From Candidatus Electrothrix sp. GW3-4 (GTDB taxonomy: Bacteria; Desulfobacterota; Desulfobulbia; Desulfobulbales; Desulfobulbaceae), in contig NZ_CP147990.1 in assembly GCF_037902255.1 (NCBI RefSeq), positions 3,690,001 through 3,722,000 of the forward strand: a stretch of 32,000 bases of DNA, in the 5' to 3' direction. The first letter of the stretch is position 1. Every line of letters starts with the position of its first letter. Below the pieces are notes generated by a model. It had not been told where the DNA came from. It did not search any database and worked only from the letters and a program-made list of their open reading frames with translations. Of this stretch, positions 3,004 through 32,000 are shown in pieces. The translations under genes and the position numbers were made by a program.

Positions 3004-5730
3004 ATGGAATTGCTCGCAGTCTGGGGAATAGGCAAGGCGGTTTTGCCCTTTTTTCGCCCCATCCTGGAAACCATCGCCAAGGACGTGGCCAAGGATGCCG
3101 CCAAGAGCTACGTGGGCAAGTGCTTTAAGAGCGTCTTTTCGGTCATCCACAAGGATGCCCTGAGCAAGGCCACCGGTCTGGCCCTGAAAGAGCTCCTCGT
3201 CCTCATCGAAGACGAGTTCATCCGGGCGGATATCGAAGAGGAGCGGCTGCCCACCTGGACCGAGGACCTGCGCCGTTTTGTCGAGCAGGACCGGGTCTGT
3301 CAGGCCATTGCCGATCTCTTTCTCCGGCCTGAGGCCATCCCGGAGCCGGGCAGCTTTGCCCTTGCCTGGCAGGAGCTTGAAGGTGCCCAACCCCTGCCGG
3401 ACGGATTCAACTGGAAGTACATCAGCAGGCGTTTCTCGGCCAAGGTCAAGGAGATTCGTCATTCCTCTCCTGAACTCCGGGAGACCTTCGAGTCCCTGGC
3501 CAAGGCCCAGGACTCCGCAGCCCTGCAGGAGCTGGCCGGTCTGCCGCCCGGTTTCAATCTGGATACCTACCGCGAGGCCCTGTTCGAGCGCTACGGCAAG
3601 CTGGACTTTGCCAGCCTGGATGTCACCGGGCCCTACTATGATAATGTCCGTCTCTGGAAGGTCTTCGTGCCCCAGTCGGTCCGGGAATGCCATGAGTACG
3701 ACCCGCAGCTGCTGGAGGTCCCCAAGGAAGAGCTGCAACGCCAGGCCGAGGCGGGCGAGCTGGACCCGGAACAGCTGGCCGAGTCCGAGCGCTTGCATGA
3801 GGAGCGCAGGCGGGCCTATGTCAACCAGCCGCCGCGCCCGGTGCTCGAAGTCGCCAACGATACCGCAAGCCAGCGCCTGCAACGCCTGGTCATCCTCGGT
3901 GATCCCGGTTCGGGCAAGTCCTGCCTCCTGCAATACCTAGCCCTGGCATGGGCCAAGATCGACGATCCCAACCAGCGCTACACCGCCCCCCTCCCCCTGC
4001 TCATCGAGCTGCGGGCCTATAACCGCTGGCCATGTCCCAACGGCAAGGGCTTTCTCAAGTACCTGCACGAGTCCTCCACCTGGCATCGGCTCAATCAACA
4101 GACCCTCCATCATCTGCTCGGTCAGCCGGGCCGCGTTGTCCTCCTGTTGGACGGGCTGGACGAGGTCTTTGACCCGGTGGAGCGCGAGCAGGTGGTCAAC
4201 GATATCCACCGTTTCAGCAACGAGTACAAGCAGGTTCGCATTGTGGTGACCTCGCGGGTGGTGGGCTATAGGTCCAAGCGCCTGCGTGATGCTGAGTTCC
4301 GCCATTTCATGCTCCAGGACCTGGATAAGGAACAGATCAGCAGCTTTCTGGAGAAATGGCATACGGTCACCTTTGACAAGCTGGAGGAAGGCGCGACCAA
4401 GCGGGAGCGGCTGGCCAAGGCCATCGAGCGATCCAAGTCCATCGGCCAGCTGGCAGGCAATCCCCTGCTTCTGACTATGATGGCCATCCTCAACCGCAAC
4501 CAGAAGCTGCCTGACGATCGGGTGGACCTGTACCAGCAATGCTCCCGCCTCCTCCTCCATCAATGGGATACCGAACGGGCCCTGGGGGATTTCCCCGGCC
4601 TGAGCGAGGAGATCGGCCTGCGGGAAAAGACCACCATCCTCCGCACCGTGGCCTATGCCATGCAGACGCACCAGGCCGAGAACACGCGGGCCAACTATAT
4701 TGATGGCCAGGCCCTGGAGAAGCTGATTGAGGAGTACCTCCATACCGAGTTACGTTTTGAGCAGGCACGGGCCGTGGCCCGGGCCTTGGTTGAGCAGTTA
4801 CGAAGGCGGAACTTTATCCTCTGCTACCTGGGTGGAGACAGCTACGCCTTTGTCCATCGGACCTTTCTGGAGTATTTCTGTGCGGCCGAGATCGTCCATC
4901 AGTTCAATGTGGCCAAGACGCTCAGCGAGCAGGATCTAATTGATTTGTTCGATAAGCACTGTGGGGACGATGACTGGCGCGAGGTGCTGCGCCTGATCTG
5001 TGGGCAGATTGATGAGAAGTTTGCCGGACGAATTATTGCCCATCTGACGGAACGGGTAGATATGGAAGCGTGGGATGGAGAAATGCCGTTGCCGGAGTTG
5101 GTGCTGGCGGTTTGGTGCTTGAGCGAAGTTAGAAATTTAAATAAAATTCAGGAGAAGATAGGAGGAGACCTGCTGTTAAAAGTTGTTGGCTGTTTTTTAA
5201 GAGGAACAAGAGGAAATCATCGTCTTGCTTGGCAACTGCTTGCAGCGGCTAAGGATATTGGCACTGTATGGCCAGGAAAATTCCGATTTGATTTTATATT
5301 GCAATACCCTGTAGAGTGGTGGGAATTTCAGGTCACATGGCCTCAATTTTTAGCGGCTGTTTTCAAGCAACGCCGGTGGATAGAACAACTTGCCGGTGTG
5401 GAAAATAATTTTATTCGATCAGGTTCTTTTTTTACTTTAAATCAATACTGGCCTGATGAGAAAGCTTATCAGCTTTTTAAAGAGTTTTCTCGTTTCGATG
5501 GAGCAGCAGCTTCATTTTATGGAGGCAAGCATTCCAAGTTTGGTAAATTTATATTTGAACGTGTTTTATTGTATCATGATCCTCGCAATCCCATCCCCGT
5601 CGAGCACATCCAACAAGCCGCAGAAGAAGCCGGTATTCCCCCGTATAAAATCGACGAAACCGTGCGCTCTCTTTCAGAGCACATGGGCTGGGACATCACC
5701 AAAGGCAGCGAGGCCGGGAAGCTGGCATAA
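3004..5730 (+). CDS. NACHT-domain STAND NTPase (bacterial NACHT, candidate anti-phage / conflict-system protein)
   Basis: 908-aa ORF. Walker A LVILGDPGSGKSCLL at about 3898-3921. Walker B VVLLLDGLDEV at about 4135-4167. GNPLLLTMM motif typical of the NACHT/winged-helix region. The ~290-aa helical N-terminal region and the C-terminal region are unassigned. Confidence 0.85.
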   Translation: MELLAVWGIGKAVLPFFRPILETIAKDVAKDAAKSYVGKCFKSVFSVIHKDALSKATGLALKELLVLIEDEFIRADIEEERLPTWTEDLRRFVEQDRVCQAIADLFLRPEAIPEPGSFALAWQELEGAQPLPDGFNWKYISRRFSAKVKEIRHSSPELRETFESLAKAQDSAALQELAGLPPGFNLDTYREALFERYGKLDFASLDVTGPYYDNVRLWKVFVPQSVRECHEYDPQLLEVPKEELQRQAEAGELDPEQLAESERLHEERRRAYVNQPPRPVLEVANDTASQRLQRLVILGDPGSGKSCLLQYLALAWAKIDDPNQRYTAPLPLLIELRAYNRWPCPNGKGFLKYLHESSTWHRLNQQTLHHLLGQPGRVVLLLDGLDEVFDPVEREQVVNDIHRFSNEYKQVRIVVTSRVVGYRSKRLRDAEFRHFMLQDLDKEQISSFLEKWHTVTFDKLEEGATKRERLAKAIERSKSIGQLAGNPLLLTMMAILNRNQKLPDDRVDLYQQCSRLLLHQWDTERALGDFPGLSEEIGLREKTTILRTVAYAMQTHQAENTRANYIDGQALEKLIEEYLHTELRFEQARAVARALVEQLRRRNFILCYLGGDSYAFVHRTFLEYFCAAEIVHQFNVAKTLSEQDLIDLFDKHCGDDDWREVLRLICGQIDEKFAGRIIAHLTERVDMEAWDGEMPLPELVLAVWCLSEVRNLNKIQEKIGGDLLLKVVGCFLRGTRGNHRLAWQLLAAAKDIGTVWPGKFRFDFILQYPVEWWEFQVTWPQFLAAVFKQRRWIEQLAGVENNFIRSGSFFTLNQYWPDEKAYQLFKEFSRFDGAAASFYGGKHSKFGKFIFERVLLYHDPRNPIPVEHIQQAAEEAGIPPYKIDETVRSLSEHMGWDITKGSEAGKLA
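5658..5730 (+). repeat. Direct repeat copy 1: the last 24 codons of the NACHT gene
   Basis: AACCGTGCGCTCTCTTTCAGAGCACATGGGCTGGGACATCACCAAAGGCAGCGAGGCCG... recurs at 6311-6385. Confidence 0.9.
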
Positions 5731-5818: not shown

Positions 5819-6286
5819 ATGGAATGGGCTGAAGTCATAGGCAACCCCCTTTTGCAGAATCTTCCCTTCAAGATCGAGCTGAACCGCTTCGGCAAAATCC
5901 TCATGAGCCTGGCCTCCAATCAGCACGGACGCATCCAGGGCCGGATGGCTGCGAATCTTGTCAATAAGCTGCCCAACGGTGAGGTCATCACGGAATGCTC
6001 TATCCAAACCTCGGAGGGAGTCAAGGTGGCCGATGTGGTTTGGGCCTCGGATGAGTTCATCCAGACCTTTGCCTATGAAACCCCGTATCCCAAGGCCCCG
6101 GAAATCTGCATTGAGATCGTTTCCACGTCAAACTCCAAGGCGGAAATTACCGGCAAGGTGGAACTCTATCTGGCAAAGGGTGCGCAGGAAGTCTGGGTAG
6201 TCTATGAGGACGGCAGAATTACGACCTTCAGCCATATCGGGGAAATCAAAAAAAGCTCCTTGGTCCCTGATGCGCAGAAGCTCTAG
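5819..6286 (+). CDS. Uma2 family (DUF820) restriction-endonuclease-like protein
   Basis: 155 aa. The segment PEICIEIVSTSNS...KVELYLAKGAQEVWVV matches the PD-(D/E)xK-type core of Uma2/DUF820 proteins. TGGAG lies upstream of the ATG. Confidence 0.75.
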   Translation: MEWAEVIGNPLLQNLPFKIELNRFGKILMSLASNQHGRIQGRMAANLVNKLPNGEVITECSIQTSEGVKVADVVWASDEFIQTFAYETPYPKAPEICIEIVSTSNSKAEITGKVELYLAKGAQEVWVVYEDGRITTFSHIGEIKKSSLVPDAQKL

Positions 6287-6310: not shown

Positions 6311-6385
6311 AACCGTGCGTTCACTTTCAGAACACATGGGCTGAGATATCACCAAGGGCAGCGAGGCCGAGAGGTTTCCGCATAA
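6311..6385 (+). pseudogene. Orphan copy of the NACHT gene 3' end (direct repeat copy 2)
   Basis: It translates in frame as TVRSLSEHMG*DITKGSEAE..., against ETVRSLSEHMGWDITKGSEAGKLA* in the intact gene. About 6 mismatches in the first ~58 nt: 5 synonymous plus TGG->TGA. Confidence 0.85.
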
Positions 6386-10561: not shown

Positions 10562-11155
10562 ATGATCATGTCGCTATTGAGCAATCTTTTTGGTTGGAAG
10601 AAACCCTTGCCGGAGGCAAAGCAGAGGGAACTGGCAGCCTCGCTTCTTCAAGAGGCACAAGCACTTGCAGCGAATAAGCCGAAAAAAGCGCTTTCCCTGC
10701 TTCGTCGCAAAAGTAAACCCGCTTATGATGTACTGCGCATCGGAGGGGCGATGCATGGCGAATTCCGCAGTCTGGTCGTGAGGATACGGTCAAGACGGGA
10801 GCAATGCCCATTCCTTCCTTCCACTGCGGTGGAGGTAATCTGTTGGGATACCTGGCAGGATCCCATGTTCCACGACATCGCTGATCGCACCCGCAAAACA
10901 GAGGCCGAGGTCTTGTATATCCCCCCATCGCCCAAGCGAAACCCTAGAGACGCAATGGCCGAGCTTGAGGCCTTGCAGATGCTGTACGATCCAGAGGTGG
11001 GCGTGATGACCATTGGTGAAAAAGGGGTGTTCCTGCGCTGTTCGCTGATTTTGGCAGCGGTAGGTAACCTCCCGGATGATGCTGAAGAAATCATTCAGGA
11101 TATGTTGGATCAGGCCAAGGTTCAGGGACTGAAGGTCGGGTGGATTACGGTGTGA
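10562..11155 (+). CDS. Hypothetical protein (the start may be the ATG at 10568)
   Basis: 197-aa ORF with core-like GC content. AGGGGAG lies just upstream. No recognisable domain. Its 3' end is duplicated at 12763-12858. Confidence 0.55.
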   Translation: MIMSLLSNLFGWKKPLPEAKQRELAASLLQEAQALAANKPKKALSLLRRKSKPAYDVLRIGGAMHGEFRSLVVRIRSRREQCPFLPSTAVEVICWDTWQDPMFHDIADRTRKTEAEVLYIPPSPKRNPRDAMAELEALQMLYDPEVGVMTIGEKGVFLRCSLILAAVGNLPDDAEEIIQDMLDQAKVQGLKVGWITV

Positions 11156-11210
11156 TTCTAAGCTGGCTTTTGACAGAAATATTCTTTAGCTGTCCTCAGG
11201 CCGGTTGTGG
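11118..11210 (+). repeat. Direct repeat copy 1: the last ~38 nt of the 197-aa ORF plus ~55 nt of downstream sequence
   Basis: AGGTTCAGGGACTGAAGGTCGGGTGGATTACGGTGTGA...AGAAATATTCTTTA...GTTGTGG recurs at 12763-12858 at roughly 80% identity, with a 1-nt indel. Confidence 0.85.
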
Positions 11211-11312: not shown

Positions 11313-11321
11313 GTGAAAAAC

Positions 11322-12758
11322 ATGAAGAAAGTCTCAGCAGAACAAGTGATTAAACGTCTCAAGATTGAAAACCCTTGGTGGGAAACACGAAAAATACCAA
11401 CGGCCTATCTTGCGTTTAAGCCTCGATCTTACCTTGAGCTTTTCTACCCTTTAGTTCAGACCAAAAAAATTCGACGAGCAACGGTCTTGATGGGGCCGAG
11501 ACGAGTTGGCAAGACCGTAATACTCCACCATACTATACAGAACCTCATTGACAGTGGTTATGACCCCAACAAAATAGGATATTTCTCTGTAGATCACCCC
11601 ATTTACAATGGATTAGGCCTAGAGGAATTACTTGAACTTTTTTCTGCGGCGACTGAAGCTAACTATCACGAGGATGAGTGCTACATCTTTTTTGATGAAA
11701 TACAATATCTCAAGAATTGGGAAAATCATCTTAAACTTCTTGTAGACCGTCAGCCAAACTTAAAATGTACCGTGTCTGGGTCTGCTGCGGCAGCATTGAA
11801 ATTAAAAAGCTCAGAATCTGGAGCAGGAAGATTTACAGATTTTCTTCTGCCGCCATTAACATTTCACGAATATCTGGAGCTTTTAGATAAAAATAATCTG
11901 GTTATACCACCAAGCGAAGCGAATGGTTTTTTCAAACCACGCAATATAGAAAAATTAAACGAAAGTTTTATTCACTATCTTAACTATGGAGGATACCCGG
12001 AAGTTATTTTCTCCGACATAATCCAATCAGACCCAGGTCGTTTTATCAAAAGTGATATTATCGACAAAGTTCTTCTGAGGGATTTGCCGGGTCTGTATGG
12101 TATTCAAGATATACAGGAACTCAACTACCTTTTTACAACACTAGCTTTTAACTCATCAAACGAAGTGTCCTTGGAAGAACTATCCAAAGGATCAGGTGTA
12201 GCTAAAAATACGATAAAAAAATACATTGAGTACTTAGAAGCGGCTTTTCTTATTAGAACAGTTCATAGAATAGACAGAACAGCTAAGCGCTTTAAGCGTG
12301 CCAATTTTTTTAAGGTTTATTTGACTAATCCGTCTATTCGAAGTGCCTTATTTTCTCCTGTTACTCATTCGGATGAAGCTATAGGGGCTCTCTCGGAAAC
12401 AGCTATATATTCTCAATGGTTTCATTCCGACACCTTACTCCATTATGCTCGATGGAAAAACGGAGAGGTTGACATCGTTCACTTGAACAAACAATTAAAA
12501 GTCTCGTGGGCTATCGAGGTTAAATGGACGGATAGATTTTTCACCAGACCTCATGAGCTGAAGAGTCTTATTCAATTTTGCCACTCAAATAATGTTACAG
12601 GGGCTGCTGTAACGACTATGACAAAATCAGAAAAAGTAACCGTTGAGAATGTTAATTTTGATTTCATCCCCACAAGTTTATATTGTTATACAGTCGGCTA
12701 TAACATCGTAAAAGGTAAACAAAATATAAGAGAGGGGCTAACCAGCGGAGCAACCTGA
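11322..12758 (+). CDS. AAA+ ATPase of the COG1373 / DUF4143 family (an alternative GTG start is at 11313)
   Basis: Walker A LMGPRRVGKTV. Walker B YIFFDEIQYLKNWE. C-terminal GEVDIVHL...WAIEVKW resembles a PD-(D/E)xK core. GC content is low relative to the neighbours. Confidence 0.8.
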   Translation: MKKVSAEQVIKRLKIENPWWETRKIPTAYLAFKPRSYLELFYPLVQTKKIRRATVLMGPRRVGKTVILHHTIQNLIDSGYDPNKIGYFSVDHPIYNGLGLEELLELFSAATEANYHEDECYIFFDEIQYLKNWENHLKLLVDRQPNLKCTVSGSAAAALKLKSSESGAGRFTDFLLPPLTFHEYLELLDKNNLVIPPSEANGFFKPRNIEKLNESFIHYLNYGGYPEVIFSDIIQSDPGRFIKSDIIDKVLLRDLPGLYGIQDIQELNYLFTTLAFNSSNEVSLEELSKGSGVAKNTIKKYIEYLEAAFLIRTVHRIDRTAKRFKRANFFKVYLTNPSIRSALFSPVTHSDEAIGALSETAIYSQWFHSDTLLHYARWKNGEVDIVHLNKQLKVSWAIEVKWTDRFFTRPHELKSLIQFCHSNNVTGAAVTTMTKSEKVTVENVNFDFIPTSLYCYTVGYNIVKGKQNIREGLTSGAT

Positions 12759-12762
12759 CCGC

Positions 12763-12858
12763 AGGTTCAGGGGCTGAAGGTCGGGTGGGGTTACGATGTG
12801 AGCCTAAGGTAGCTTTTAGTAGAAATATTCTTTATTTGTCTTTTAGCACAGTTGTGGG
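12763..12858 (+). repeat. Orphan direct repeat copy 2 of the 197-aa ORF 3' end and its downstream region
   Basis: It reads QVQGLKVGWGYDVSLR*, against KVQGLKVGWITV* in the intact gene. It lies between the ATPase and NYN genes. Confidence 0.85.
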
Positions 12859-19556: not shown

Positions 19557-21421
19557 AAGGGTGTTGAAAAGTACCCCTGCATAGAGCAATTTCAGTTGTC
19601 CGAGATGCTCAATAAGCATTTTTTTCGTTTGTTAGTGTCACTGCAATCTGATGTCGAGCACTTTCCAGGCGGAATTCAACCTTTTTCAAAAAGCCACTAT
19701 GGGCAAGGCTCTATTTTTTGGACAAGCCGACTGTCAGAAACAGCAAAAATGAACAAACGGGTATTTTTGTAGCTGTAATAATTTAGATTGTTGTTTTGGT
19801 CCTTCTGCTATGCTGCCATTTTGAAGAGTGGCAGTTGCGGTGACTTTTTAGCAGGTATTTTTTTGCGGGTTCCTATCATTTTCAACAATAACAAGGAAAT
19901 ACTGCTGAGCGTACATCGAGCTGTGATCGCGGACTGACCGCGAACCCGAACGGTTTCAAGGCCGGTTTGATGTTTTAACAGGTTGAAAGGTCGTTCAGAA
20001 TTTTTGCGAATATCGTGTGCCTCCTGTATCTGCTCGACATGGTAAGGTATTCGCTGGAAAAAGCCTCTGTCTAACGGTATGCATCGACATTGCGGACAGC
20101 TTCCTTTGAGAAGACATTCACCTGTATTTGCAGCACATTTATACTCGTGATGATTCCCTTCGACGCCTGCATACTCCATAGGAACAGAACATTCATCATG
20201 GCAGAAAACAGTGCCTTTGACAGCATCAACATTATCCGGTGTAGATACTGTAGAACAGGGTGGAGTTGTCACGTATACACCTGTTTTATTGTACAATGAT
20301 CCGTCATTGTCATGATAGGCGGTATCGGCGGTGATGAGTTTCATCTTAACCCCCATAGCCTGCGCCACATCGACCAAAAGCGAAAGAAAGTGACTATCAT
20401 GGTGATTTGCCGGTGCAAGCAAAGATATGATCGGAAAACTATGATCAGTTTCAGCGTCAATTGCAGTTAACGTATGCAGACGATAGCCGACTACGTACAC
20501 AGATTTGTCACGCTTGTTGCGTCGTTTTCCACAGTCGCTGTCGAGATCATTGTAAATGCGTATATTTTGACCATTGATATTCAATGAAGCCAGGGGGATT
20601 TTACATTCATTGGCCAGTTCGGTAGAGTCCACTCCGTGCAGGATATGGTCACCAAGCATCCCGGACTGCAAAAAATGATGCAAAATATAAACCGTAATAT
20701 TAATCTGTTGGACAAATGTGAGGGAATTACGGAATTTGCTAAGCTGAGTATGGTCGATCATTGTTTTTTCACGCAATGACAATCCGATAAAGGCGCGATT
20801 CTGTTTGCGGTCAAGGCCGAGGTATTCTTCATCACAGAATTTTCGGTAGCTGATTTCTGGATACTTGATCGTCTTGAGCAGTTCGGCACGGAACATGTTG
20901 TGAGGGAAAAAGTCCCGCATAGCAGGACTATAGCCGTCATAAGCTAACAGGCGATTGATAATTTCGTTGTCAAGCAGCTGGTCGATAAACTGGAGCTCTT
21001 CATCTTTGATATATTTGGCGAAACGCCTTTCGCCAAAAAGCTTTATGATACTGTTATTTTTTGATTCATTGACAATATCGGCCATCTGATCAAGGCTGAT
21101 AATCCCCTTTGTCGGAACCTGTTGCTCCACGCCGAGCAGCTGATCTGGGGTGGCTGAAATATCCTGCTTGAAATCATACTCGCCCGCGACCTGCGCGAGG
21201 ACTTTTCGAGAGATTTCCTTTTTGGTCTTACGGTTCAGCCGGTTCCAATTAGGATAGTTTTCCTTAAGCTCTTTTTGTACGAGACGTTTGATATTTTTAT
21301 TATGCATAATGCCTGAAATGGGTAACGAATTAACATTATTAACTTTTCGTCATTATACAGGGTTTTTTCGACTTAAGCAACTGTTTTTGTGTAATATTGA
21401 AGTGTTCTTTTCAACACCCTT
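19557..21421 (-). mobile_element. Insertion sequence, 1865 bp, with 18-bp terminal inverted repeats and a 5-bp target-site duplication
   Basis: Left end AAGGGTGTTGAAAAGTAC (19557-19574). Right end GTTCTTTTCAACACCCTT (21404-21421), which is the reverse complement AAGGGTGTTGAAAAGAAC; 17/18 match. ATATA flanks both ends (19552-19556 and 21422-21426). The element encloses a single transposase ORF. Confidence 0.85.
19808..21307 (-). CDS. DDE transposase (IS4/IS5/IS1182-type superfamily; exact IS family not assigned)
   Basis: 499 aa. Candidate catalytic regions: ILHGVDSTELA, KLITADTAYHDNDG, and a C-terminal RKNSERPFNLLKHQTGLETVRVRG block typical of DDE_Tnp_1-type enzymes. Confidence 0.8.
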   Translation of the reverse strand: MHNKNIKRLVQKELKENYPNWNRLNRKTKKEISRKVLAQVAGEYDFKQDISATPDQLLGVEQQVPTKGIISLDQMADIVNESKNNSIIKLFGERRFAKYIKDEELQFIDQLLDNEIINRLLAYDGYSPAMRDFFPHNMFRAELLKTIKYPEISYRKFCDEEYLGLDRKQNRAFIGLSLREKTMIDHTQLSKFRNSLTFVQQINITVYILHHFLQSGMLGDHILHGVDSTELANECKIPLASLNINGQNIRIYNDLDSDCGKRRNKRDKSVYVVGYRLHTLTAIDAETDHSFPIISLLAPANHHDSHFLSLLVDVAQAMGVKMKLITADTAYHDNDGSLYNKTGVYVTTPPCSTVSTPDNVDAVKGTVFCHDECSVPMEYAGVEGNHHEYKCAANTGECLLKGSCPQCRCIPLDRGFFQRIPYHVEQIQEAHDIRKNSERPFNLLKHQTGLETVRVRGQSAITARCTLSSISLLLLKMIGTRKKIPAKKSPQLPLFKMAA

Positions 21422-24816: not shown

Positions 24817-26043
24817 ATGTCGTTTTTAGGCAAGAAGATCTGCTACCTGGATTGTTTTTCCGGGGTCAGTGGTAATATGCTCCTGGGAGGCCTGCTCAAT
24901 GCAGGCTTAGCGCTGGAAGCCCTCCGGGAGGCGCTCGGTCTTCTCAGGCTTCCGGGTTGGGAGCTGAGCAGCACCCCTGTTATGCAATCCGGTTTACAGG
25001 CCACCCTAGCCCAGGTTCAGACAGAGGAGAACAGAGCCCATCGCCATTTCTCCGATATCCGTGCCCTCCTGGAACAATCGGAACTGGACCAAGCCGTTAT
25101 CGACCAATCCCTTGCCGTGTTCACCCGGCTGGCCGAGGCAGAAGCCCATGTCCACGGTACCACTCCTGAAAAAATCCATTTCCACGAAGTGGGGGCCCTG
25201 GATGCGATCATCGATATCGTCGGGACGGTTGCTGGCCTGCATCTCCTCGGCATAGAAGAGATTATCTGCTCTCCTCTGCCTATGCCTACTGGCGGCTGGC
25301 TCCATTGCCAACACGGAGCGCTGCCCCTGCCTGCCCCGGCGGTCTGCGAACTCCTCAAAGGGGTCCCTGTCTTCGGGGAGAGCCTGCAACAGGAGCTGGT
25401 CACCCCCACCGGTGCGGCCCTGGCTGCGGAATTGAGCAGCACCTTCGGCACGCTGCCTCCTATGACCCTGAAACTAAGCGGTTACGGAGCTGGGACCATG
25501 CAACGCCAGGACGGTCGACCCAACCTACTCCGTTTGCTCATCGGACAAAGCCACTCTGCTGCCGAAGCGCAACAGGTGGAGGTCATTGAGACCCATCTGG
25601 ATGACTGGAACCCGGAGGTCTGGCCCCATGTGGCAGCCAAGCTGATGCGGGAGGGCGCACTGGACATCAGCCTTGTACCCATCCAGATGAAAAAAGGGCG
25701 CCCCGGTTTCCTCCTCCGCCTCCTTGCTGATCCGGCCCATGCTGCGCATCTCAGGAACTCCGTCCTCAACGAAACCTCTGCCATTGGTCTTCGTTTTCAT
25801 ACTGTCCAGCGCATAACCCTGCCCAGAACCAACATTGAGCTCACCACCCCCTGGGGGACCGTGCGGGCCAAAAAGGTAACCACCACTGCGGGGGTCAGGA
25901 TTACCCCGGAGTACGAGGACTGTACGCGTCTGGCAGAAGCACACAATATCCCCTTACTAAAAATCTATGCTGCGGTTGCAGAATTGAGCGGCACGGTTTC
26001 CGTTCATTCCCACGAACCGCCAAGACACGACATTCCCAAATAA
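24817..26043 (+). CDS. larC: Nickel-pincer cofactor biosynthesis protein LarC (DUF111 family)
   Basis: YLDCFSGVSGNMLLGGLLNAG...HFHEVGALDAIIDIVG...ETSAIGLR are LarC/DUF111 signatures. Confidence 0.88.
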   Translation: MSFLGKKICYLDCFSGVSGNMLLGGLLNAGLALEALREALGLLRLPGWELSSTPVMQSGLQATLAQVQTEENRAHRHFSDIRALLEQSELDQAVIDQSLAVFTRLAEAEAHVHGTTPEKIHFHEVGALDAIIDIVGTVAGLHLLGIEEIICSPLPMPTGGWLHCQHGALPLPAPAVCELLKGVPVFGESLQQELVTPTGAALAAELSSTFGTLPPMTLKLSGYGAGTMQRQDGRPNLLRLLIGQSHSAAEAQQVEVIETHLDDWNPEVWPHVAAKLMREGALDISLVPIQMKKGRPGFLLRLLADPAHAAHLRNSVLNETSAIGLRFHTVQRITLPRTNIELTTPWGTVRAKKVTTTAGVRITPEYEDCTRLAEAHNIPLLKIYAAVAELSGTVSVHSHEPPRHDIPK

Positions 26044-26722: not shown

Positions 26723-27490
26723 TTATGTCGAAAGAAATCTGTCTTCTTGAGGGGATAGTATCTGCTGTAGTAGCATCGGAAGCATAAGAATACTGCAATA
26801 TACAGTCAAATTGCTGAATCTAAAATCCGAGGCAGGAGCTATGACAAGATAAGGCAGCCAGTATATCACCCCTAACAAGAGGACAAATAAGTATCTTCTG
26901 TAGTTCTCTCCGAGCCGTTCTTTGTAGTAATGTATTAAAAAGAGCTGGAGAAAGATCAAAACGAAATAGACCCAAACCAAATACAGAGGCGTTTTCGTCA
27001 GGAACCAGTTGGCAAGCCTTGCTGCCGCATTTATTGCCTTTGGATGGTGGAACTCAAGGCCTTTTGTCAAATAATGATCAAAGACAGTGACCTCATATGG
27101 ACATATAATCGGTTTTTTTATTCCAAGCAGGTAAGACAGCATCCTGCCCCGAATCTTTAAGTAGGCTTCAGGATATTGCAGGATTAACCGGATAAAGTCT
27201 TTCTTAAATGTTTTGTCTGGAAATGATTCTTTCCAGATGCTCCATTTAATATATTCCAACGAGAGCATAGTTGGGGCGTAAGGAATATACATTTTCTTGA
27301 TCTGTTCAACCGTAAGCGGCTCAACAAGCTCCTTGGCTAGCGATTCAGGAATAAGGTTTTGTTCCAGCTCTGCCGACATCCCCCATAGGTCAAGCATGAG
27401 AGAAGAATTCTCAAGATGGTATATTTTGTTTTCTTCTTTTACAAGAGTAGCTGTTATCCAATTGTTTAACTGAATGCTTCCATACAACAT
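26723..27490 (-). CDS. Membrane protein, probably the C-terminal part of a frameshifted polytopic (GT-C / polymerase-like) protein
   Basis: 255 aa, low GC content, C-terminal TM helices. It comes into frame with the upstream ORF if the A8 tract (T8 on the + strand, 27519-27526) gains one base. Confidence 0.55.
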   Translation of the reverse strand: MLYGSIQLNNWITATLVKEENKIYHLENSSLMLDLWGMSAELEQNLIPESLAKELVEPLTVEQIKKMYIPYAPTMLSLEYIKWSIWKESFPDKTFKKDFIRLILQYPEAYLKIRGRMLSYLLGIKKPIICPYEVTVFDHYLTKGLEFHHPKAINAAARLANWFLTKTPLYLVWVYFVLIFLQLFLIHYYKERLGENYRRYLFVLLLGVIYWLPYLVIAPASDFRFSNLTVYCSILMLPMLLQQILSPQEDRFLST

Positions 27491-27501
27491 TATTGCGGTT
27501 G

Positions 27502-28092
27502 CTATGATGATTCCTGTATTTTTTTTATTGCGCTGCCTTGGATAAGCGTTGAGAAAAGATAGACACTATACGGAACCACACAAACAATGGCATTGTGCCG
27601 AACAGACATCCCGTAAAAAAAAAAGAGGAATGATGCCATCAGAAGCCACTTGTTTCTTGTGGTTTCAAAGGTGAAAAGCAGGGCGATAGACATGGAGAGA
27701 GAAGCAAGCATTGAAACATCCTTCCATATAACGCCGTTCATGAAAAATATCGGCGGAAACAGTCCAAGAAAGAGGATAAAGACTGCTCTGTGAATGGTCT
27801 TTGAAAAGAAAAATCTCCCCAGAATATAGAGGGAGGCGTAGTAAACGGCATTATGGAATATCAGCATTCCTTGCTGGCCATGGGTGATCTTATTGAGGAT
27901 GCTCCAAAGATACACCATGGAGGGCGGATACCAATTGCTGATATATTCTGGATGCAGTGCCTCATGCCACTGATTGACAGAGTCCACTGACATAGCACCA
28001 GGATAGAAGATGTAGATCACCGTCAAGACGAGGACTATGCTCAGGAAGGCATCAGCAGGGACAACTTTTTTTAATGATGGGTATATTTTCAT
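27502..28092 (-). CDS. Membrane protein, probably the N-terminal part of the same frameshifted polytopic protein
   Basis: ~196 aa from the ATG at 28092, with 5-6 TM helices. The loop motif YPGAMSVDSVNQW follows TM1. It ends 15 nt after an A8 run. A C8 tract lies 7 nt upstream of the start. Confidence 0.55.
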   Translation of the reverse strand: MKIYPSLKKVVPADAFLSIVLVLTVIYIFYPGAMSVDSVNQWHEALHPEYISNWYPPSMVYLWSILNKITHGQQGMLIFHNAVYYASLYILGRFFFSKTIHRAVFILFLGLFPPIFFMNGVIWKDVSMLASLSMSIALLFTFETTRNKWLLMASFLFFFYGMSVRHNAIVCVVPYSVYLFSTLIQGSAIKKIQESS

Positions 28093-28398
28093 TGCCAAAG
28101 GGGGGGGACGAAAAAAGAATGGTGATGCTCATGAGATTAAAGTTGTCCTCGAATAGCTCCTGGGCTCCCAAAAACAGCCACTTAAAAAACGCAAAATGGG
28201 GCTACAAGCTTATATGGGGTTCACTTTAATCCCCCTTCATATATAGATATAAAGGATAATTAAGTGTATAACTCGAGTTACTTACCCCTTGGCGCCACCC
28301 CTGTCAAGAGAAAATTTCCAAGCCAGAAGATCATCCTGTCCAGCTGGAGCCCCCCTAGAAACAACCAAACACACGTTCCATTTCCCGCATATTTCCCA

Positions 28399-28427
28399 TT
28401 GACATCTCTCCCGCCCCTTTCTATCAT
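28399..28427 (+). promoter_or_regulatory. Candidate sigma70-type promoter for livGF
   Basis: TTGACA at 28399-28404, a 17-nt spacer, then TATCAT at 28422-28427, about 60 nt upstream of the livG ATG. Confidence 0.4.
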
Positions 28428-28489
28428 ACTCGACAGACTCTTATTTCAAGAGCGATGCCATACGGTTGAACCCTAAACAAAGCCCCCTG

Positions 28490-29257
28490 ATGCTCCTCGA
28501 AGTAAAAAATATGACCCATTATTTTGGAGGACTGCGGGCCGTGCATGGCTTTAACCTCCAGATTGATCCAGGCCAGATCCACGGCCTGATCGGCCCCAAC
28601 GGGGCGGGAAAGACCACTGTCTTCAACCTGATCACCGGGGTGTACACGCCCACCGAGGGAACCCTGACCCTTGCAGGAAAAAAAATCCGGGGTAAGGAAC
28701 CCCATCACATCGCCTCAATGGGCATCGGCAGGACCTTCCAGAACCTGCTCCTCTGGCGGCATATGAACGTGCTGGATCATATCCGACTGGCCCATTATTC
28801 CCAGCTCAGCTACGGCCTGTTCGGGGCCTTTTTCGGCACCCCGGCCTGCCGACAGCAGGAAAAAAAGGTCAAGGAGCATTGCTACCGACTCATGGAGACC
28901 TTTGATATCAGCCAGTTTGCCGACCAGATCGTGGGCAGCCTGCCCTATGGGGCCCAACGCCGGGTGGAAATGGCCCGGGCCATGGCCACCAACCCAAAGA
29001 TCCTCTTCCTGGACGAACCCACAGCAGGCATGACCCCAGATGAGCTGGTCAGAATGATTGCAATTATCCGTCAGGTTCACCGGGAATTCGGGGTGGCTAT
29101 CTTCCTTATTGAGCATCGGATGAAATTTGTCATGGAGCTCTGCGACAGCATCCAGGTCCTGGTCTTTGGCGAAGTCATCTCCCAGGGACCACCGGAGTCC
29201 ATTCAGAACGATCCCAAGGTCATTGAAGCCTATCTCGGTACAGAGGATATTCATTAA
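28490..29257 (+). CDS. livG: Branched-chain amino acid ABC transporter ATP-binding protein LivG
   Basis: LLEVKNMTHYFGGLRAVHGFNL...GLIGPNGAGKTTVFNLITG...LPYGAQRRVEMARA...LFLDEPTAGM. I preferred the ATG at 28490 over the TTG at 28466. Confidence 0.88.
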   Translation: MLLEVKNMTHYFGGLRAVHGFNLQIDPGQIHGLIGPNGAGKTTVFNLITGVYTPTEGTLTLAGKKIRGKEPHHIASMGIGRTFQNLLLWRHMNVLDHIRLAHYSQLSYGLFGAFFGTPACRQQEKKVKEHCYRLMETFDISQFADQIVGSLPYGAQRRVEMARAMATNPKILFLDEPTAGMTPDELVRMIAIIRQVHREFGVAIFLIEHRMKFVMELCDSIQVLVFGEVISQGPPESIQNDPKVIEAYLGTEDIH

Positions 29258-29970
29258 TGCAGCTTGTCGTTGAAAATCTCACTGTTTCCTATGGCAATAT
29301 CCGGGCTCTACACGGGATCAGCTTTTCCGTGGAGCAGGGCGAGATCGTGACCATCATCGGGGCCAACGGGGCGGGCAAAAGTACCACCCTCCGGGCTATC
29401 TCCCGAATGATTCCAGCAGAAGCGGGATCAAAGGTAGAATTCATGGGCCAGGATATCCTCAAATATCCAACCGACAAGGTGGTGTCCCGGCTTGGTATCT
29501 CCCATGTGCCGGAAGGCAGGATGATCTTCGGTAATCTTACCGTGACTGAGAATCTCACCCTGGCCGCCTTTGCCCGTAAGGATAAGGAGGCGGTGAACAA
29601 GGACCGTAAATGGGTCTTTGATCTCTTTCCCCGTCTGGAAGAACGAAAAGACCAGTTGGCTGGGACCCTGAGCGGTGGAGAGCAACAGATGCTGGCCGTA
29701 GGCCGGGCCTATATCAGTGGCCGGAAGATTATGCTCCTGGATGAACCTTCTATGGGGCTTGCGCCCCTGCTGATGCTGGATATGTTCGAGTCCCTGAAGG
29801 AGATCAACCGGACCGGAACCACTATCCTGCTGGTGGAGCAGAACGCCCGGCTGGCGCTGAAGTTTGCTCAGCGCGGTTATGTGCTGGAGAACGGGAAACT
29901 GGTGTTAGAAGGTAAGGCCGAGGGGCTGCTGGATGATCCGGCGGTGAAAAAGGCGTATTTGGGGGCGTGA
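29257..29970 (+). CDS. livF: Branched-chain amino acid ABC transporter ATP-binding protein LivF
   Basis: LTVSYGNIRALHGISF...IIGANGAGKSTTLRAIS...LSGGEQQMLAVGRA...LLDEPSMGLAP. The start overlaps the livG stop (TAATG). Confidence 0.9.
   Translation: MQLVVENLTVSYGNIRALHGISFSVEQGEIVTIIGANGAGKSTTLRAISRMIPAEAGSKVEFMGQDILKYPTDKVVSRLGISHVPEGRMIFGNLTVTENLTLAAFARKDKEAVNKDRKWVFDLFPRLEERKDQLAGTLSGGEQQMLAVGRAYISGRKIMLLDEPSMGLAPLLMLDMFESLKEINRTGTTILLVEQNARLALKFAQRGYVLENGKLVLEGKAEGLLDDPAVKKAYLGA
29821..29970 (+). repeat. Direct repeat copy 1: the last 50 codons of livF
   Basis: The 150 nt recur at 31575-31724 with 14 differences (about 91% identity). Confidence 0.95.
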
Positions 29971-30105
29971 ATGATCAGACTCTTGAAGCGCGTACAGGTG
30001 AGTCAAAAAAAATAACGTATCAAATTTGTTATATATTGAACATTGATCAGTTAGCTTTGTCACTCGACAGGAACAGCAAAAAAATAGGAAGAAGAGGAAC
30101 GCCGC

Positions 30106-30690
30106 ATGAAAACTTTCAAACCAATTATTGTCTTTATACTTATGCTTCTGGTGGTGGATTCCGCAACCGCACAGGAGGTGCAGAGTGTAGTGCGAAGTCC
30201 TCTGGGCGGTATAGCTGTCGGCCCTTCAGGGCTAGCAACTGCTGTAATACATACCCGACCTTACTGCTGCCCATCAACCGCACTGGAAGTATATACTGAT
30301 GAAATAGTAGGAGAGGAGAATCTTCAATGGGTGCTGTTTGGATTCAGCGTCCCGATAGAAAAAAGCATGAGGGAAATATCCGGGGTTGAGGTATGTTATG
30401 AGATTAAGTCTGATCTGCCAGGACGGACATATATCTCCCAGACAAGATTAACTGATATGAGTACCCCTGATGCAGCATATGTGCAGGTTGATGACAGCAC
30501 AGATCGTACAGAACTCGGCCCGCAATGCTATATAAGCAACGGCCATTTTAAGCCTGACGGTTCCGTTGCTTTGCATCTGAAAGTCGTCTTTGGAGATCCC
30601 GATGATACAATTACGATAGGCAGCACGAGGCTGCTTATAACTCATTCTTCGCCGCCGCTTGTAGCTCCTATGATGCTGCTTCTGGACTGA
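30106..30690 (+). CDS. Secreted protein of unknown family, paralog A (194 aa)
   Basis: Signal peptide MKTFKPIIVFILMLLVVDSATA|QE. Conserved PYCCPSTALEV, EVCY, ISQTRLTDMSTPDAA, GPQCY. GAGGAA ribosome-binding site. Low GC content. Confidence 0.75.
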   Translation: MKTFKPIIVFILMLLVVDSATAQEVQSVVRSPLGGIAVGPSGLATAVIHTRPYCCPSTALEVYTDEIVGEENLQWVLFGFSVPIEKSMREISGVEVCYEIKSDLPGRTYISQTRLTDMSTPDAAYVQVDDSTDRTELGPQCYISNGHFKPDGSVALHLKVVFGDPDDTITIGSTRLLITHSSPPLVAPMMLLLD

Positions 30691-30749
30691 CTTGGAAAAA
30701 AGAGAAGTAGAATCCGGTTACTCTATTCATAGAAAAGAATCATTCCACA

Positions 30750-30772
30750 GGAAGCGAACTGCTTCCCTTTGT
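30750..30772 (+). terminator. Weak stem-loop between the two paralogs
   Basis: GGAAGC-gaact-GCTTCC followed by CTTTGT. The stem is short and the U-tract poor. Confidence 0.3.
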
Positions 30773-30838
30773 CAAAAAAACAACTGGTATTATCAGGTAA
30801 CGATAAGAGCTGAAAAACAAGAATAAGAGGAGAACAGC

Positions 30839-31378
30839 ATGAAGATTTTATTTAAATCAATCGTCGTCATCGCGCTTATGATGTCAGCGGCAGGGTCTGC
30901 AACAGCGGAGGAAGTGCAAAGTATAGTGCAAAGTCCTCTGGGCGGTATAGCTGTCGGCCCTTCGGGACCGGCAAGTGCTGTGATATATACCCAACCTTAT
31001 TGCTGCCCTTCAACGGCACTTGAAGTACGTGCCAATAGCGTAGTGGGTGAGAATGATTTTCAATGGGTGAATTTCGGCCTTAGTCTTCCTATAGAAAACA
31101 ACATGAATGCAATATCCGAGGTTGAAGTTTGTTATCAAATTATATCTGCCCAGTCTGGAAGCACATATATCTCCCAGACAAGATTAACTGATATGAGTAC
31201 CCCTGATGCAGCAACAGTGAAACTTGATGACGGAACTGATCGCACTGATCTCGGCCCCCAATGTTACGTGACAAATGGTAACATTACCCCTGAGGGGACT
31301 ATTACGCTAGCACTGAAAGTCGTCTTTGGCGATACTGAAGATGCAATTATTATAGGTAGTACCAGGCTGCTGTTCTGA
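30839..31378 (+). CDS. Secreted protein of unknown family, paralog B (179 aa)
   Basis: Signal peptide MKILFKSIVVIALMMSAAGSATA|EE. Roughly two-thirds amino-acid identity to paralog A by eye, with the same four conserved Cys. AGGAG ribosome-binding site. Confidence 0.75.
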   Translation: MKILFKSIVVIALMMSAAGSATAEEVQSIVQSPLGGIAVGPSGPASAVIYTQPYCCPSTALEVRANSVVGENDFQWVNFGLSLPIENNMNAISEVEVCYQIISAQSGSTYISQTRLTDMSTPDAATVKLDDGTDRTDLGPQCYVTNGNITPEGTITLALKVVFGDTEDAIIIGSTRLLF

Positions 31379-31574
31379 TTTAAACATAAGCGGAGCCCTC
31401 CTCACAAATTCTGTCAACATTAACCAGAGAATCTTTAAACTGACACCGGATGAGTGATCGCCGAATCCTCCTCTGTCTCGTGCGAGACTTAATGCTTGCA
31501 GCAATGGGGTACCGAAAAAAATAACGGGTGGATTATTCAAAATCCAGATAGAAATTAACCAGGCATCTTGCTCC

Positions 31575-31724
31575 ACTATCCTGCTGGTGGAGCAGAACGC
31601 CCGGCTGGCGCTGAAATTTGCTCAGCGTGGTTATGTGCTGGAGAATGGAAAACTGGTCCTGGAGGGTAAAGCCGAGGACCTACTGGATGATCCGGCGGTG
31701 AAAAAGGCGTATTTGGGGGCCTAA
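31575..31724 (+). pseudogene. Orphan livF 3' fragment (direct repeat copy 2)
   Basis: It encodes TILLVEQNARLALKFAQRGYVLENGKLVLEGKAEDLLDDPAVKKAYLGA*, one amino-acid difference (G->D) from livF residues 188-237. There is no upstream livF sequence, start codon or RBS. Confidence 0.9.
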
Positions 31725-31809
31725 AGGTTTCCGTAGCGGTGGTTGATGACCAAACCGAAAAAAGAACGGATGTATGCGCTACAGCATTGCTCCATGCCAA
31801 TCTCAAGCA

Positions 31810-31845
31810 CGACGAACTACCCGTTTCGTCGCCTTTCTCTTTTAT
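31810..31845 (+). terminator. Intrinsic terminator downstream of the orphan livF fragment
   Basis: CGACGAA-ctacccgt-TTCGTCG followed by CCTTTCTCTTTTA, about 85 nt after the orphan stop codon. Confidence 0.55.
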
Positions 31846-32000
31846 CTCCCCTTACCTCCACCTAACTCCATCCTCTGGACAAACAAACACGGCGTACAAA
31901 AATAACACTTCCCTCTTGTCGAGGTAAAAAAAATTGTACTTCGATAGTATTTATGCTATCCTAAAGAAAAAAGGTTAGTCTTTACTCATGCTATGTGATC

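Follow-up and report, generated by a model that had tools for sequence, protein, structure and literature searches.

Two tandem exported proteins of a widespread family with a predicted jelly-roll fold, duplicated and probably partly converted beside livF in Candidatus Electrothrix sp. GW3-4

Analysis of a 32,000-nucleotide (nt) stretch of the Candidatus Electrothrix sp. GW3-4 genome (contig NZ_CP147990.1, positions 3,690,001 to 3,722,000 of the forward strand; hereafter the window, in whose own numbering all positions are given) revealed a tandem pair of paralogous genes, A and B, directly downstream of a livF-type ABC ATPase gene. The reading that we favour, and regard as reasonably likely, is that A and B encode exported binding proteins built on a jelly-roll of about 150 residues, that they stem from an old duplication followed by gene conversion, and that they lie beside livF as an ancestral insertion and not as an autonomous element.

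Paralog A (30106-30690, + strand) is an open reading frame (ORF) of 194 amino acids (aa), in which residues 1-22 (30106-30171) form a signal peptide followed by the predicted jelly-roll domain; paralog B (30839-31378, +) is an ORF of 179 aa with a signal peptide at residues 1-23 (30839-30907), again followed by the jelly-roll. As read from the sequence, both leaders combine a K-containing n-region, a hydrophobic core and a c-region of the form ...SATA before Q/E, with AXA-type cleavage sites after MKTFKPIIVFILMLLVVDSATA (next residues QE) and after MKILFKSIVVIALMMSAAGSATA (next residues EE). The codon alignment gave 74.2% nt and 66.9% aa identity between these tandem paralogs, and both proteins contain the motifs SPLGGIAVGPSG, PYCCPSTALEV, EVCY, YISQTRLTDMSTPDAA and GPQCY, which amount to four Cys per protein. 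A hydrophobic C-terminal tail, ITHSSPPLVAPMMLLLD (30637-30687, +), is present in A and not in B; it is kept in the A-type orthologues P0006 and P0007, and the Electrothrix A-type consensus reads THSS.P..AP.MLLL[KD]. Re-reading of the ORFs and motifs thus bore out the initial description of the pair, made from the DNA letters without database searches (hereafter the sequence-only reading), as tandem paralogs with signal peptides, shared motifs, four Cys and a tail confined to A. The region between livF and A (29972-30105, +) has a ribosome-binding site, GAGGA, ~9 nt ahead of the ATG and a weak sigma70-like match at 30057-30085, by consensus only, and the 148-nt A-B intergenic region (30691-30838, +) contains a GAGGAG ribosome-binding site ahead of B. 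Promoter and terminator scans found nothing above shuffled expectation. The last ~70 nt of the A-B intergenic region are homologous to the regions upstream of pair genes in Ca. Electrothrix sp. AR4 and on contig L022. Every pairwise comparison gave a dN/dS of 0.2-0.3. Judged by this constraint and by the homologues described below, A and B are real genes, of the expressed type.

Searches against described families gave no assignment. Scans of A and B against Pfam and NCBIfam returned no match at E-values of 10 or below except a chance one to CdiI (E-value 0.13), the PHROGs scan of A and B gave no match, and sequence and profile searches of the PDB with A, B and a 45-member family profile gave nothing below an E-value of 0.7. 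Homologues, in turn, numbered 89 in a large protein database, and an exhaustive HMMER search over 1.84 billion cluster representatives yielded 262 clusters at 50% identity (E-value ≤ 1e-3), spread over at least six phyla. By these searches the family is undescribed but widespread, with no Pfam or NCBIfam entry. The proposal that the two proteins belong to an unrecognised family therefore stands at the sequence level, where Pfam, NCBIfam and PDB were all null, but not in the sense of an orphan, since the survey found homologues widely, across many phyla, and the fold class is recognisable.

The closest relatives, at 73-81% aa identity, are a tandem pair in the metagenome-assembled genome (MAG) of AR4 and genes on metagenome contigs. 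Outside the Electrothrix group, members with 41-63% identity were found in a deltaproteobacterial MAG, Motiliproteus, Micromonospora, Allorhizocola, Saccharothrix, Dadabacteria, Nitrospirota and Saprospiraceae, always as single copies and without livF association. A scan of Joint Genome Institute (JGI) metagenomes with B detected one distant locus only, conserved gene neighbours sought in six other genomes were not found, and six ORFs near homologues gave no match to the family hidden Markov model. Because no neighbouring family copies occur in the other genomes, the tandem state is so far specific to the Electrothrix group. The mode of anchoring varies: A, B and many others have Sec leaders, the nearest non-Electrothrix relatives have lipoboxes (such as LAGC and VAAC), P0092 has an N-terminal transmembrane anchor, and P0125 has a C-terminal sorting domain of the type IX secretion system. 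Every stand-alone member of the family is thus, by prediction, exported.

The conserved core (B residues ~70-175) was also found at the N-terminus of proteins of 600-1100 aa that have no signal peptide and whose remainder is a pectate-lyase-like beta-helix, with Pect-lyase_RHGA_epim/Beta_helix matches and sometimes a C-terminal Phage_depo_C domain. Other fusions join the core to Peptidase_C13, RCC1 repeats, DUF7452, DUF6519, and FlgD_ig with CHU_C; A and B themselves are stand-alone, with no catalytic domain. Among 242 aligned domains, more than 85% keep W76, S112, Q113, R115, P122, D130, D131 and T133, and ~75-80% keep M119, D168 and Y143. The Cys patterns in these domains were CCCC in 95, xxCC in 40, CCxx in three and xxxx in five, with few singletons, and the motif P[YHF]CCPSTA hardly varies among the stand-alone proteins. 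Because the Cys residues co-vary as two pairs, we infer two disulfides from their co-occurrence, a vicinal one between C55 and C56 and a second between C98 and C142.

The long homologues resemble the beta-sandwich modules of phage tailspikes and depolymerases (CBA120 TSP4, 5w6h) in that the core lies N-terminal to a beta-helix matching tailspike PHROGs and Phage_depo_C; the Foldseek matches of the family fold also include phage tail-fibre and pectate-lyase proteins. They differ in that the N-terminal family module itself matches no PHROG and that the array on contig L021 is bacterial, with five genes; A and B, moreover, have leaders and no enzymatic domain. In that metagenome array (L021, 4873-15184), five pectate-lyase-like beta-helix genes follow one another next to genes for ricin-lectin and FG-GAP proteins, and at least one of the five bears the family core as its N-terminal domain, without signal peptide. 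We rejected the idea that the long beta-helix homologues are prophage genes, the single context examined (L021) being this bacterial paralog array.

Modelling pointed to one fold for both proteins. The AlphaFold2 model of B, built on the family alignment, was all-beta with 11 strands (predicted local distance difference test, pLDDT, 89.1; predicted template-modelling score 0.80), and that of A reached a pLDDT of 88.1, with the tail at low confidence and without secondary structure. Foldseek against the PDB matched the models to carbohydrate-binding modules (CBMs), namely the hyaluronan-binding CBM70, CBM6, CBM4-2, CBM36, CBM61, CBM29 and CBM22, and further to the ephrin-receptor ligand-binding domain, gingipain adhesin domains and Cry toxin domain III, with E-values of 3e-5 to 6e-4, template-modelling (TM) scores of 0.43-0.59 and identities of 8-15%. 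Against viral models (BFVD), it matched jelly-rolls in tail-fibre and pectate-lyase proteins. By these models the fold class is a beta jelly-roll or beta-sandwich, an assignment of fold and not of family membership. A clear match to a known lectin or adhesin family, which the sequence-only reading named as a result that would refute its proposal, was thus approached at the level of fold only, and no clear family match was found. With the beta-jelly-roll CBMs of CAZy (CBM4, 6, 22, 29, 36, 61 and 70; Foldseek matches 4d0q, 2cdo, 2y6k, 7ay3, 2xom, 1gwm and 4xuo), A and B share the predicted fold and the extracytoplasmic location. Domains homologous to theirs are appended to polysaccharide-lyase-like beta-helix proteins, but also to Peptidase_C13, RCC1 and DUF proteins. 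They differ from these CBMs in having no sequence similarity to Pfam, NCBIfam or PDB entries, so that they belong to no CBM family, in being stand-alone, and in a signature of their own (W76, SQxR, M119, P122, DDxTD, Y143 and the vicinal Cys pair).

The genomic setting of the pair is defined by livF. The livF-type gene (29257-29970, +) is full-length, lies directly upstream of the pair and matches Pfam ABC_tran; its product is 90% identical in aa to LivF of AR4 (dN/dS 0.05), which makes the host most likely a relative of cable bacteria within the Desulfobulbaceae. The 3' end of this gene is present twice as a 153-nt direct repeat: copy 1 (29819-29971, +) lies inside the intact livF, and copy 2 (31573-31725, +) comprises the detached last ~50 codons with a TAA stop. 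The copies are 91% identical, with 14 nt differences and one amino-acid change. Between the copies, no credible genes other than A and B are present, as had been claimed in calling these two the sole cargo of a livF-bracketed insert; the spacer from B to the livF fragment (31379-31572, no strand assigned) is likewise free of credible genes, and it has neither similarity to related loci nor an Rfam match. Comparison of 31379-31572 and 31726-32000 with AR4 and with the rest of the window detected no similarity, and the start of ruvA is not visible before the window ends. The GC content is 44-47% in the bracketed region vs 53-59% in livGF, about 10 points lower. Inspection of ORFs, Pfam matches and repeats, together with an Rfam scan of 28000-32000 that gave no match, revealed no integrase, transposase, recombinase or att/attC structure between the repeats; because no recombinase or att-like structure is present, we do not call the unit a mobile element.

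Related loci, of which L022, L024 and L025 are short metagenome contigs, showed that this arrangement is not confined to GW3-4. L024 has an A-type gene after livF with the same intergenic sequence; in L025 the livF fragment behind the B-type gene has the same left boundary but is decayed, with a stop inside it and 19 nt deleted; and L022 has a B-type gene directly adjoining a livF fragment, which runs on into a Uma2 gene. In AR4, the intact livF is followed by Uma2 without interruption, and the A/B pair lies 1.2 kb further on with no livF duplication. The order livF, A, B, spacer and livF 3' end thus appears common to at least one, and probably two, related genomes, and a private recent insertion in GW3-4 is not supported, given the same architecture in L024/L025 and L022. 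All three livF fragments end in TAA, the intact livF genes end in TGA, and the L022 fragment continues into Uma2; the fragment for these reasons looks like the displaced original end of livF. Acquisition from a related lineage fits the lower GC content together with the divergence of the repeats by 14 nt and one amino acid. Judging from the architecture, a Campbell-type or homology-assisted insertion of a segment made up of the livF 3' end, A and B in an ancestor would fit: the pair would occupy a recombination-prone spot downstream of livF, where entry of such a segment would displace the original livF end. As to the fragment itself, 31573-31725 keeps an open frame, with a 45-aa ORF from a GTG at 31587 and differences from the intact copy that are almost all synonymous. 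In L022 the equivalent fragment (1752-1892) starts with an ATG whose first letters are shared with the stop of the B-type gene (TAATG). The fragment may be a translated mini-ORF, or else a relic that was converted recently.

The same repeats admit another explanation, in which the livF 3' end, A and B form a small non-autonomous cassette that would excise as a circle through the 153-nt repeats and re-integrate into the livF of other strains, with A and B as the selected cargo. Direct repeats of the target gene's 3' end do flank both genes, and the copies differ by 14 nt and one amino acid, as if derived from two working alleles of livF; the bracketed DNA is of lower GC than livGF, in L022 the fragment is followed by Uma2, the native gene downstream of livF, livF and Uma2 are uninterrupted in AR4, and a gene 3' end likewise brackets two more inserts in the window. 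We nevertheless consider the cassette unlikely. The bracket holds neither integrase nor transposase nor a recognisable att or attC; L025 has the same architecture and left boundary with a decayed fragment, which points to vertical inheritance of an old event; the pair lies near livF in AR4 as well; and outside Electrothrix the family is single-copy with no livF association. Genomic islands that use att sites of the tRNA/tmRNA type integrate at the 3' end of a gene and duplicate that end. The livF locus is like them in that a direct repeat of a gene 3' end brackets foreign-looking DNA of lower GC while the left copy keeps livF intact, but the bracketed unit is only 1.75 kb without an integrase, its repeat is long, at 153 nt, with copies that have diverged by 9%, and the structure appears to have been inherited vertically in the related genomes.

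Two further brackets of this kind were observed in the window. A 62-nt repeat, 89% identical between 5658-5719 and 6311-6372, is the 3' end of a NACHT/STAND NTPase gene (3004-5730) and brackets a Uma2 gene (5819-6286; PD-(D/E)xK endonuclease family), repeating the pattern of the livF 3' end. A repeat of ~77 nt, 79-96% identical between 11118-11194 and 12763-12840, spans the stop of the ORF at 10562-11155 and recurs after an AAA_14/DUF4143 ATPase gene (11313-12758), which is thereby the third insert in the same 32 kb to be bracketed by the 3' end of its upstream gene.

Within the pair, identical blocks alternate with diverged DNA, as the sequence-only reading had described. The longest, a block of 51 nt (30427-30477 = 31163-31213, +), encodes TYISQTRLTDMSTPDAA and is the proposed conversion tract; a 33-nt block (30195-30227 = 30931-30963, +) encodes SPLGGIAVGPS, and a third exact match spans 17 nt (30577-30593 = 31313-31329, +). 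A run of 51 nt was reached in fewer than 1 in 20,000 shuffles of the nucleotide match string (p = 5e-5). The run of 17 identical codons between A and B gave a permutation p of 3e-5, and among codons for the same amino acid a run of 25 of the 119 is identical at synonymous sites (p = 6e-4).

For a comparison between genomes, codon alignments covered the window pair, the AR4 pair and a third pair, L024 and L025, from one metagenome. The A-type tail and 20 orthology sites are common to the window and AR4, and the tail is also present in a third A-type gene, P0007. Classification of sites revealed 26 that were concerted (within-genome paralogs alike, differing between genomes), 20 that followed orthology and 5 that were discordant, and the concerted and the discordant sites were clustered spatially. 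Because the A-type genes share the tail and 20 sites, the duplication is older than the split of the three Electrothrix-like genomes. Inside the 51-nt block, three changes (ACT/ACC, ACC/ATC and CCT/CCG) are species-specific, and within each genome the two paralogs agree; a homologue at greater distance has other synonymous codons there, which argues against a deep nucleotide-level constraint on the block. A GENECONV-like permutation test over 243 polymorphic sites, the kind of test proposed along with the first description, ranked the two within-genome pairs first, in the same region: the AR4 pair with a run of 45 sites (p = 1e-4) and the window pair with a run of 12 (p = 0.005). Between segments picked by their amino-acid differences, dS of A vs B was 1.87 in variable and 0.43 in conserved ones, a difference of about 4-fold, and omega was 0.24 in variable segments, 0.28 in loops defined by DSSP and 0.19 in conserved segments.

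These results support an old tandem duplication, partly re-homogenised by short-tract gene conversion, as the best explanation of the mosaic on sequence grounds. A duplication before the Electrothrix-like lineages split would have given an A-type copy with the hydrophobic tail and a B-type copy without it; later short-tract conversion between the adjacent copies would have made the conserved core alike in both around the blocks SPLGGIAVGPS and YISQTRLTDM, and unconverted stretches would have retained the old divergence, with purifying selection (omega ~0.25) everywhere. Part of the mosaic is plain purifying selection, since the identical blocks are the most conserved motifs of the family. Of the two causes first suggested for it, gene conversion is thus upheld by concerted sites, dS and permutation, and diversifying selection on loops is rejected, as dN/dS above 1 was nowhere reached and omega stayed near 0.25 throughout (0.19-0.28).

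That purifying selection on motifs and chance produced the whole mosaic, with no conversion and with the identical blocks being simply the most constrained codons, seems to us distinctly improbable. In its favour, the 51-nt and 33-nt blocks encode the family's two most conserved motifs, their codons are nearly identical across all four Electrothrix genes of the window and AR4 pairs, and the window pair reached a p of merely 0.005. Constraint on the protein, however, leaves aside the identity at synonymous sites (the run of 25/119 codons), the 4-fold difference in dS, the three species-specific substitutions common to both paralogs of each genome, the excess of concerted over discordant sites (26 vs 5), the outgroup's other synonymous codons in the block and the 45-site run of the AR4 pair over the same region. 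Duplicated bacterial genes such as tufA and tufB evolve in concert through short-tract gene conversion. A and B are like them in having tracts identical at synonymous sites and species-specific changes in both copies, but their homogenisation is patchy and confined to the conserved core, the copies are 26% divergent, and they are functionally distinct, since the tail is found only in A.

With regard to function, A and B are most probably extracytoplasmic ligand-binding modules, glycan-binding and lectin- or CBM-like, according to the models. A ligand-binding and probably glycan-binding role is suggested because a promiscuous extracytoplasmic jelly-roll carried on glycan-active scaffolds resembles accessory binding modules. 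In a Gram-negative host, A and B would act as stand-alone binders in the periplasm or cell envelope. Two contexts of homologues are glycan-related: the Micromonospora gene lies near CBM6, ricin and F5/8-C proteins and DsbA, and the L018 gene lies within a cluster of GH127, GH3 and fucosidase genes. A more far-reaching idea, to which we give little weight, is that the family is a new and ancient class of extracytoplasmic binding modules, defined by a nearly invariant vicinal disulfide (PYCCPSTA) and the signature ISQTR...DDxTD and retained at ~50% identity among Actinomycetota, Nitrospirota, Bacteroidota and Desulfobulbaceae for one universal envelope ligand, and that A and B would be a heteromeric envelope component carried on a livF-mobile cassette.

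The cysteines raise a different possibility, that A and B handle Cu, Ni or another thiophilic metal in the periplasm through the vicinal Cys and Met/Lys-rich tails, with the jelly-roll as a scaffold. P[YHF]CCPSTA is, as noted, nearly invariant among stand-alone members; a subclade (P0018-P0022, P0025, P0030, P0031, P0033) has Met/Lys-rich C-terminal tails such as KPMMKMQMQKGTMKMKDKEGG, which we take to resemble Met-rich Cu(I) motifs; and RND/CzcB-type efflux genes lie within 6-8 kb at two loci, L002 and L017. Cable bacteria, the relatives of the host, use Ni/S cofactors (PMC11976967), which also counts for a metal role. Yet the CC pair is missing in ~40% of the wider family's domains, where it was lost as a pair while the remaining signature was kept, and this loss as a pair is easier to reconcile with a structural vicinal disulfide than with an essential metal site. 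Neither A nor B has a tail rich in Met or His, the efflux genes are neither adjacent to a family gene nor conserved across loci, and the family is not specific to cable bacteria. Adjacent cysteines of an exported protein are, in addition, expected to be oxidised. A metal-handling role is on this evidence very improbable. The paper on the cable-bacteria conduction machinery makes no mention of such proteins (PMC11976967).

Several points weigh against the favoured reading of A and B as duplicated and converted glycan binders beside livF. The fold that the structural matches share is a very common one, their TM scores are modest and their identities 8-15%, and glycan binding is put forward for the models only because such modules most often have that function; gene neighbourhoods are not conserved from one phylum to another and give little functional help, and the disulfide pairing is based on co-occurrence only. 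As regards conversion, the p of 0.005 for the window pair would fail correction for 21 pairs unless the pair is pre-specified, the blocks of identity fall on the protein motifs that the family conserves most, and the segments of the dS contrast, picked by amino-acid differences, are not fully independent of dS. As regards the insertion, AR4 has the pair near livF without the duplication, and a Campbell-type origin is read from architecture alone.

Among the other features of the window, a DDE_Tnp_1 transposase gene (19808-21307, -) lies between imperfect 27-nt inverted repeats (19557-19583 and 21395-21421) and is probably part of an insertion sequence element. A low-GC island (26723-28098, -; 39-44%) just upstream of livG encodes two multi-pass membrane proteins, one with a weak PMT_2 glycosyltransferase match, and is similar in composition to the A/B region. 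The gene for a LarC-type nickel-insertion protein (24817-26043; PF01969, E-value 6e-133) adjoins fmt and pgpA and is not linked to A/B; in light of nickel biology in cable bacteria it may be of interest.

If the favoured reading is right, A and B represent a new, easily recognised domain family of ~260 clusters at 50% identity with a rare conserved vicinal disulfide. As a domain used both alone and, on beta-helix depolymerase-like enzymes and peptidases, as an accessory module, it would aid annotation and the discovery of new glycan-binding specificities. The locus would also provide a compact case of old duplication and patchy conversion, whose mosaic could be mistaken for diversifying selection when seen in sequence alone. 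The envelope of cable bacteria has a polysaccharide-rich layer (PMC11976967), and the presence of the pair in their relatives would make A and B concrete candidates for envelope proteomes, with no tie to conduction.

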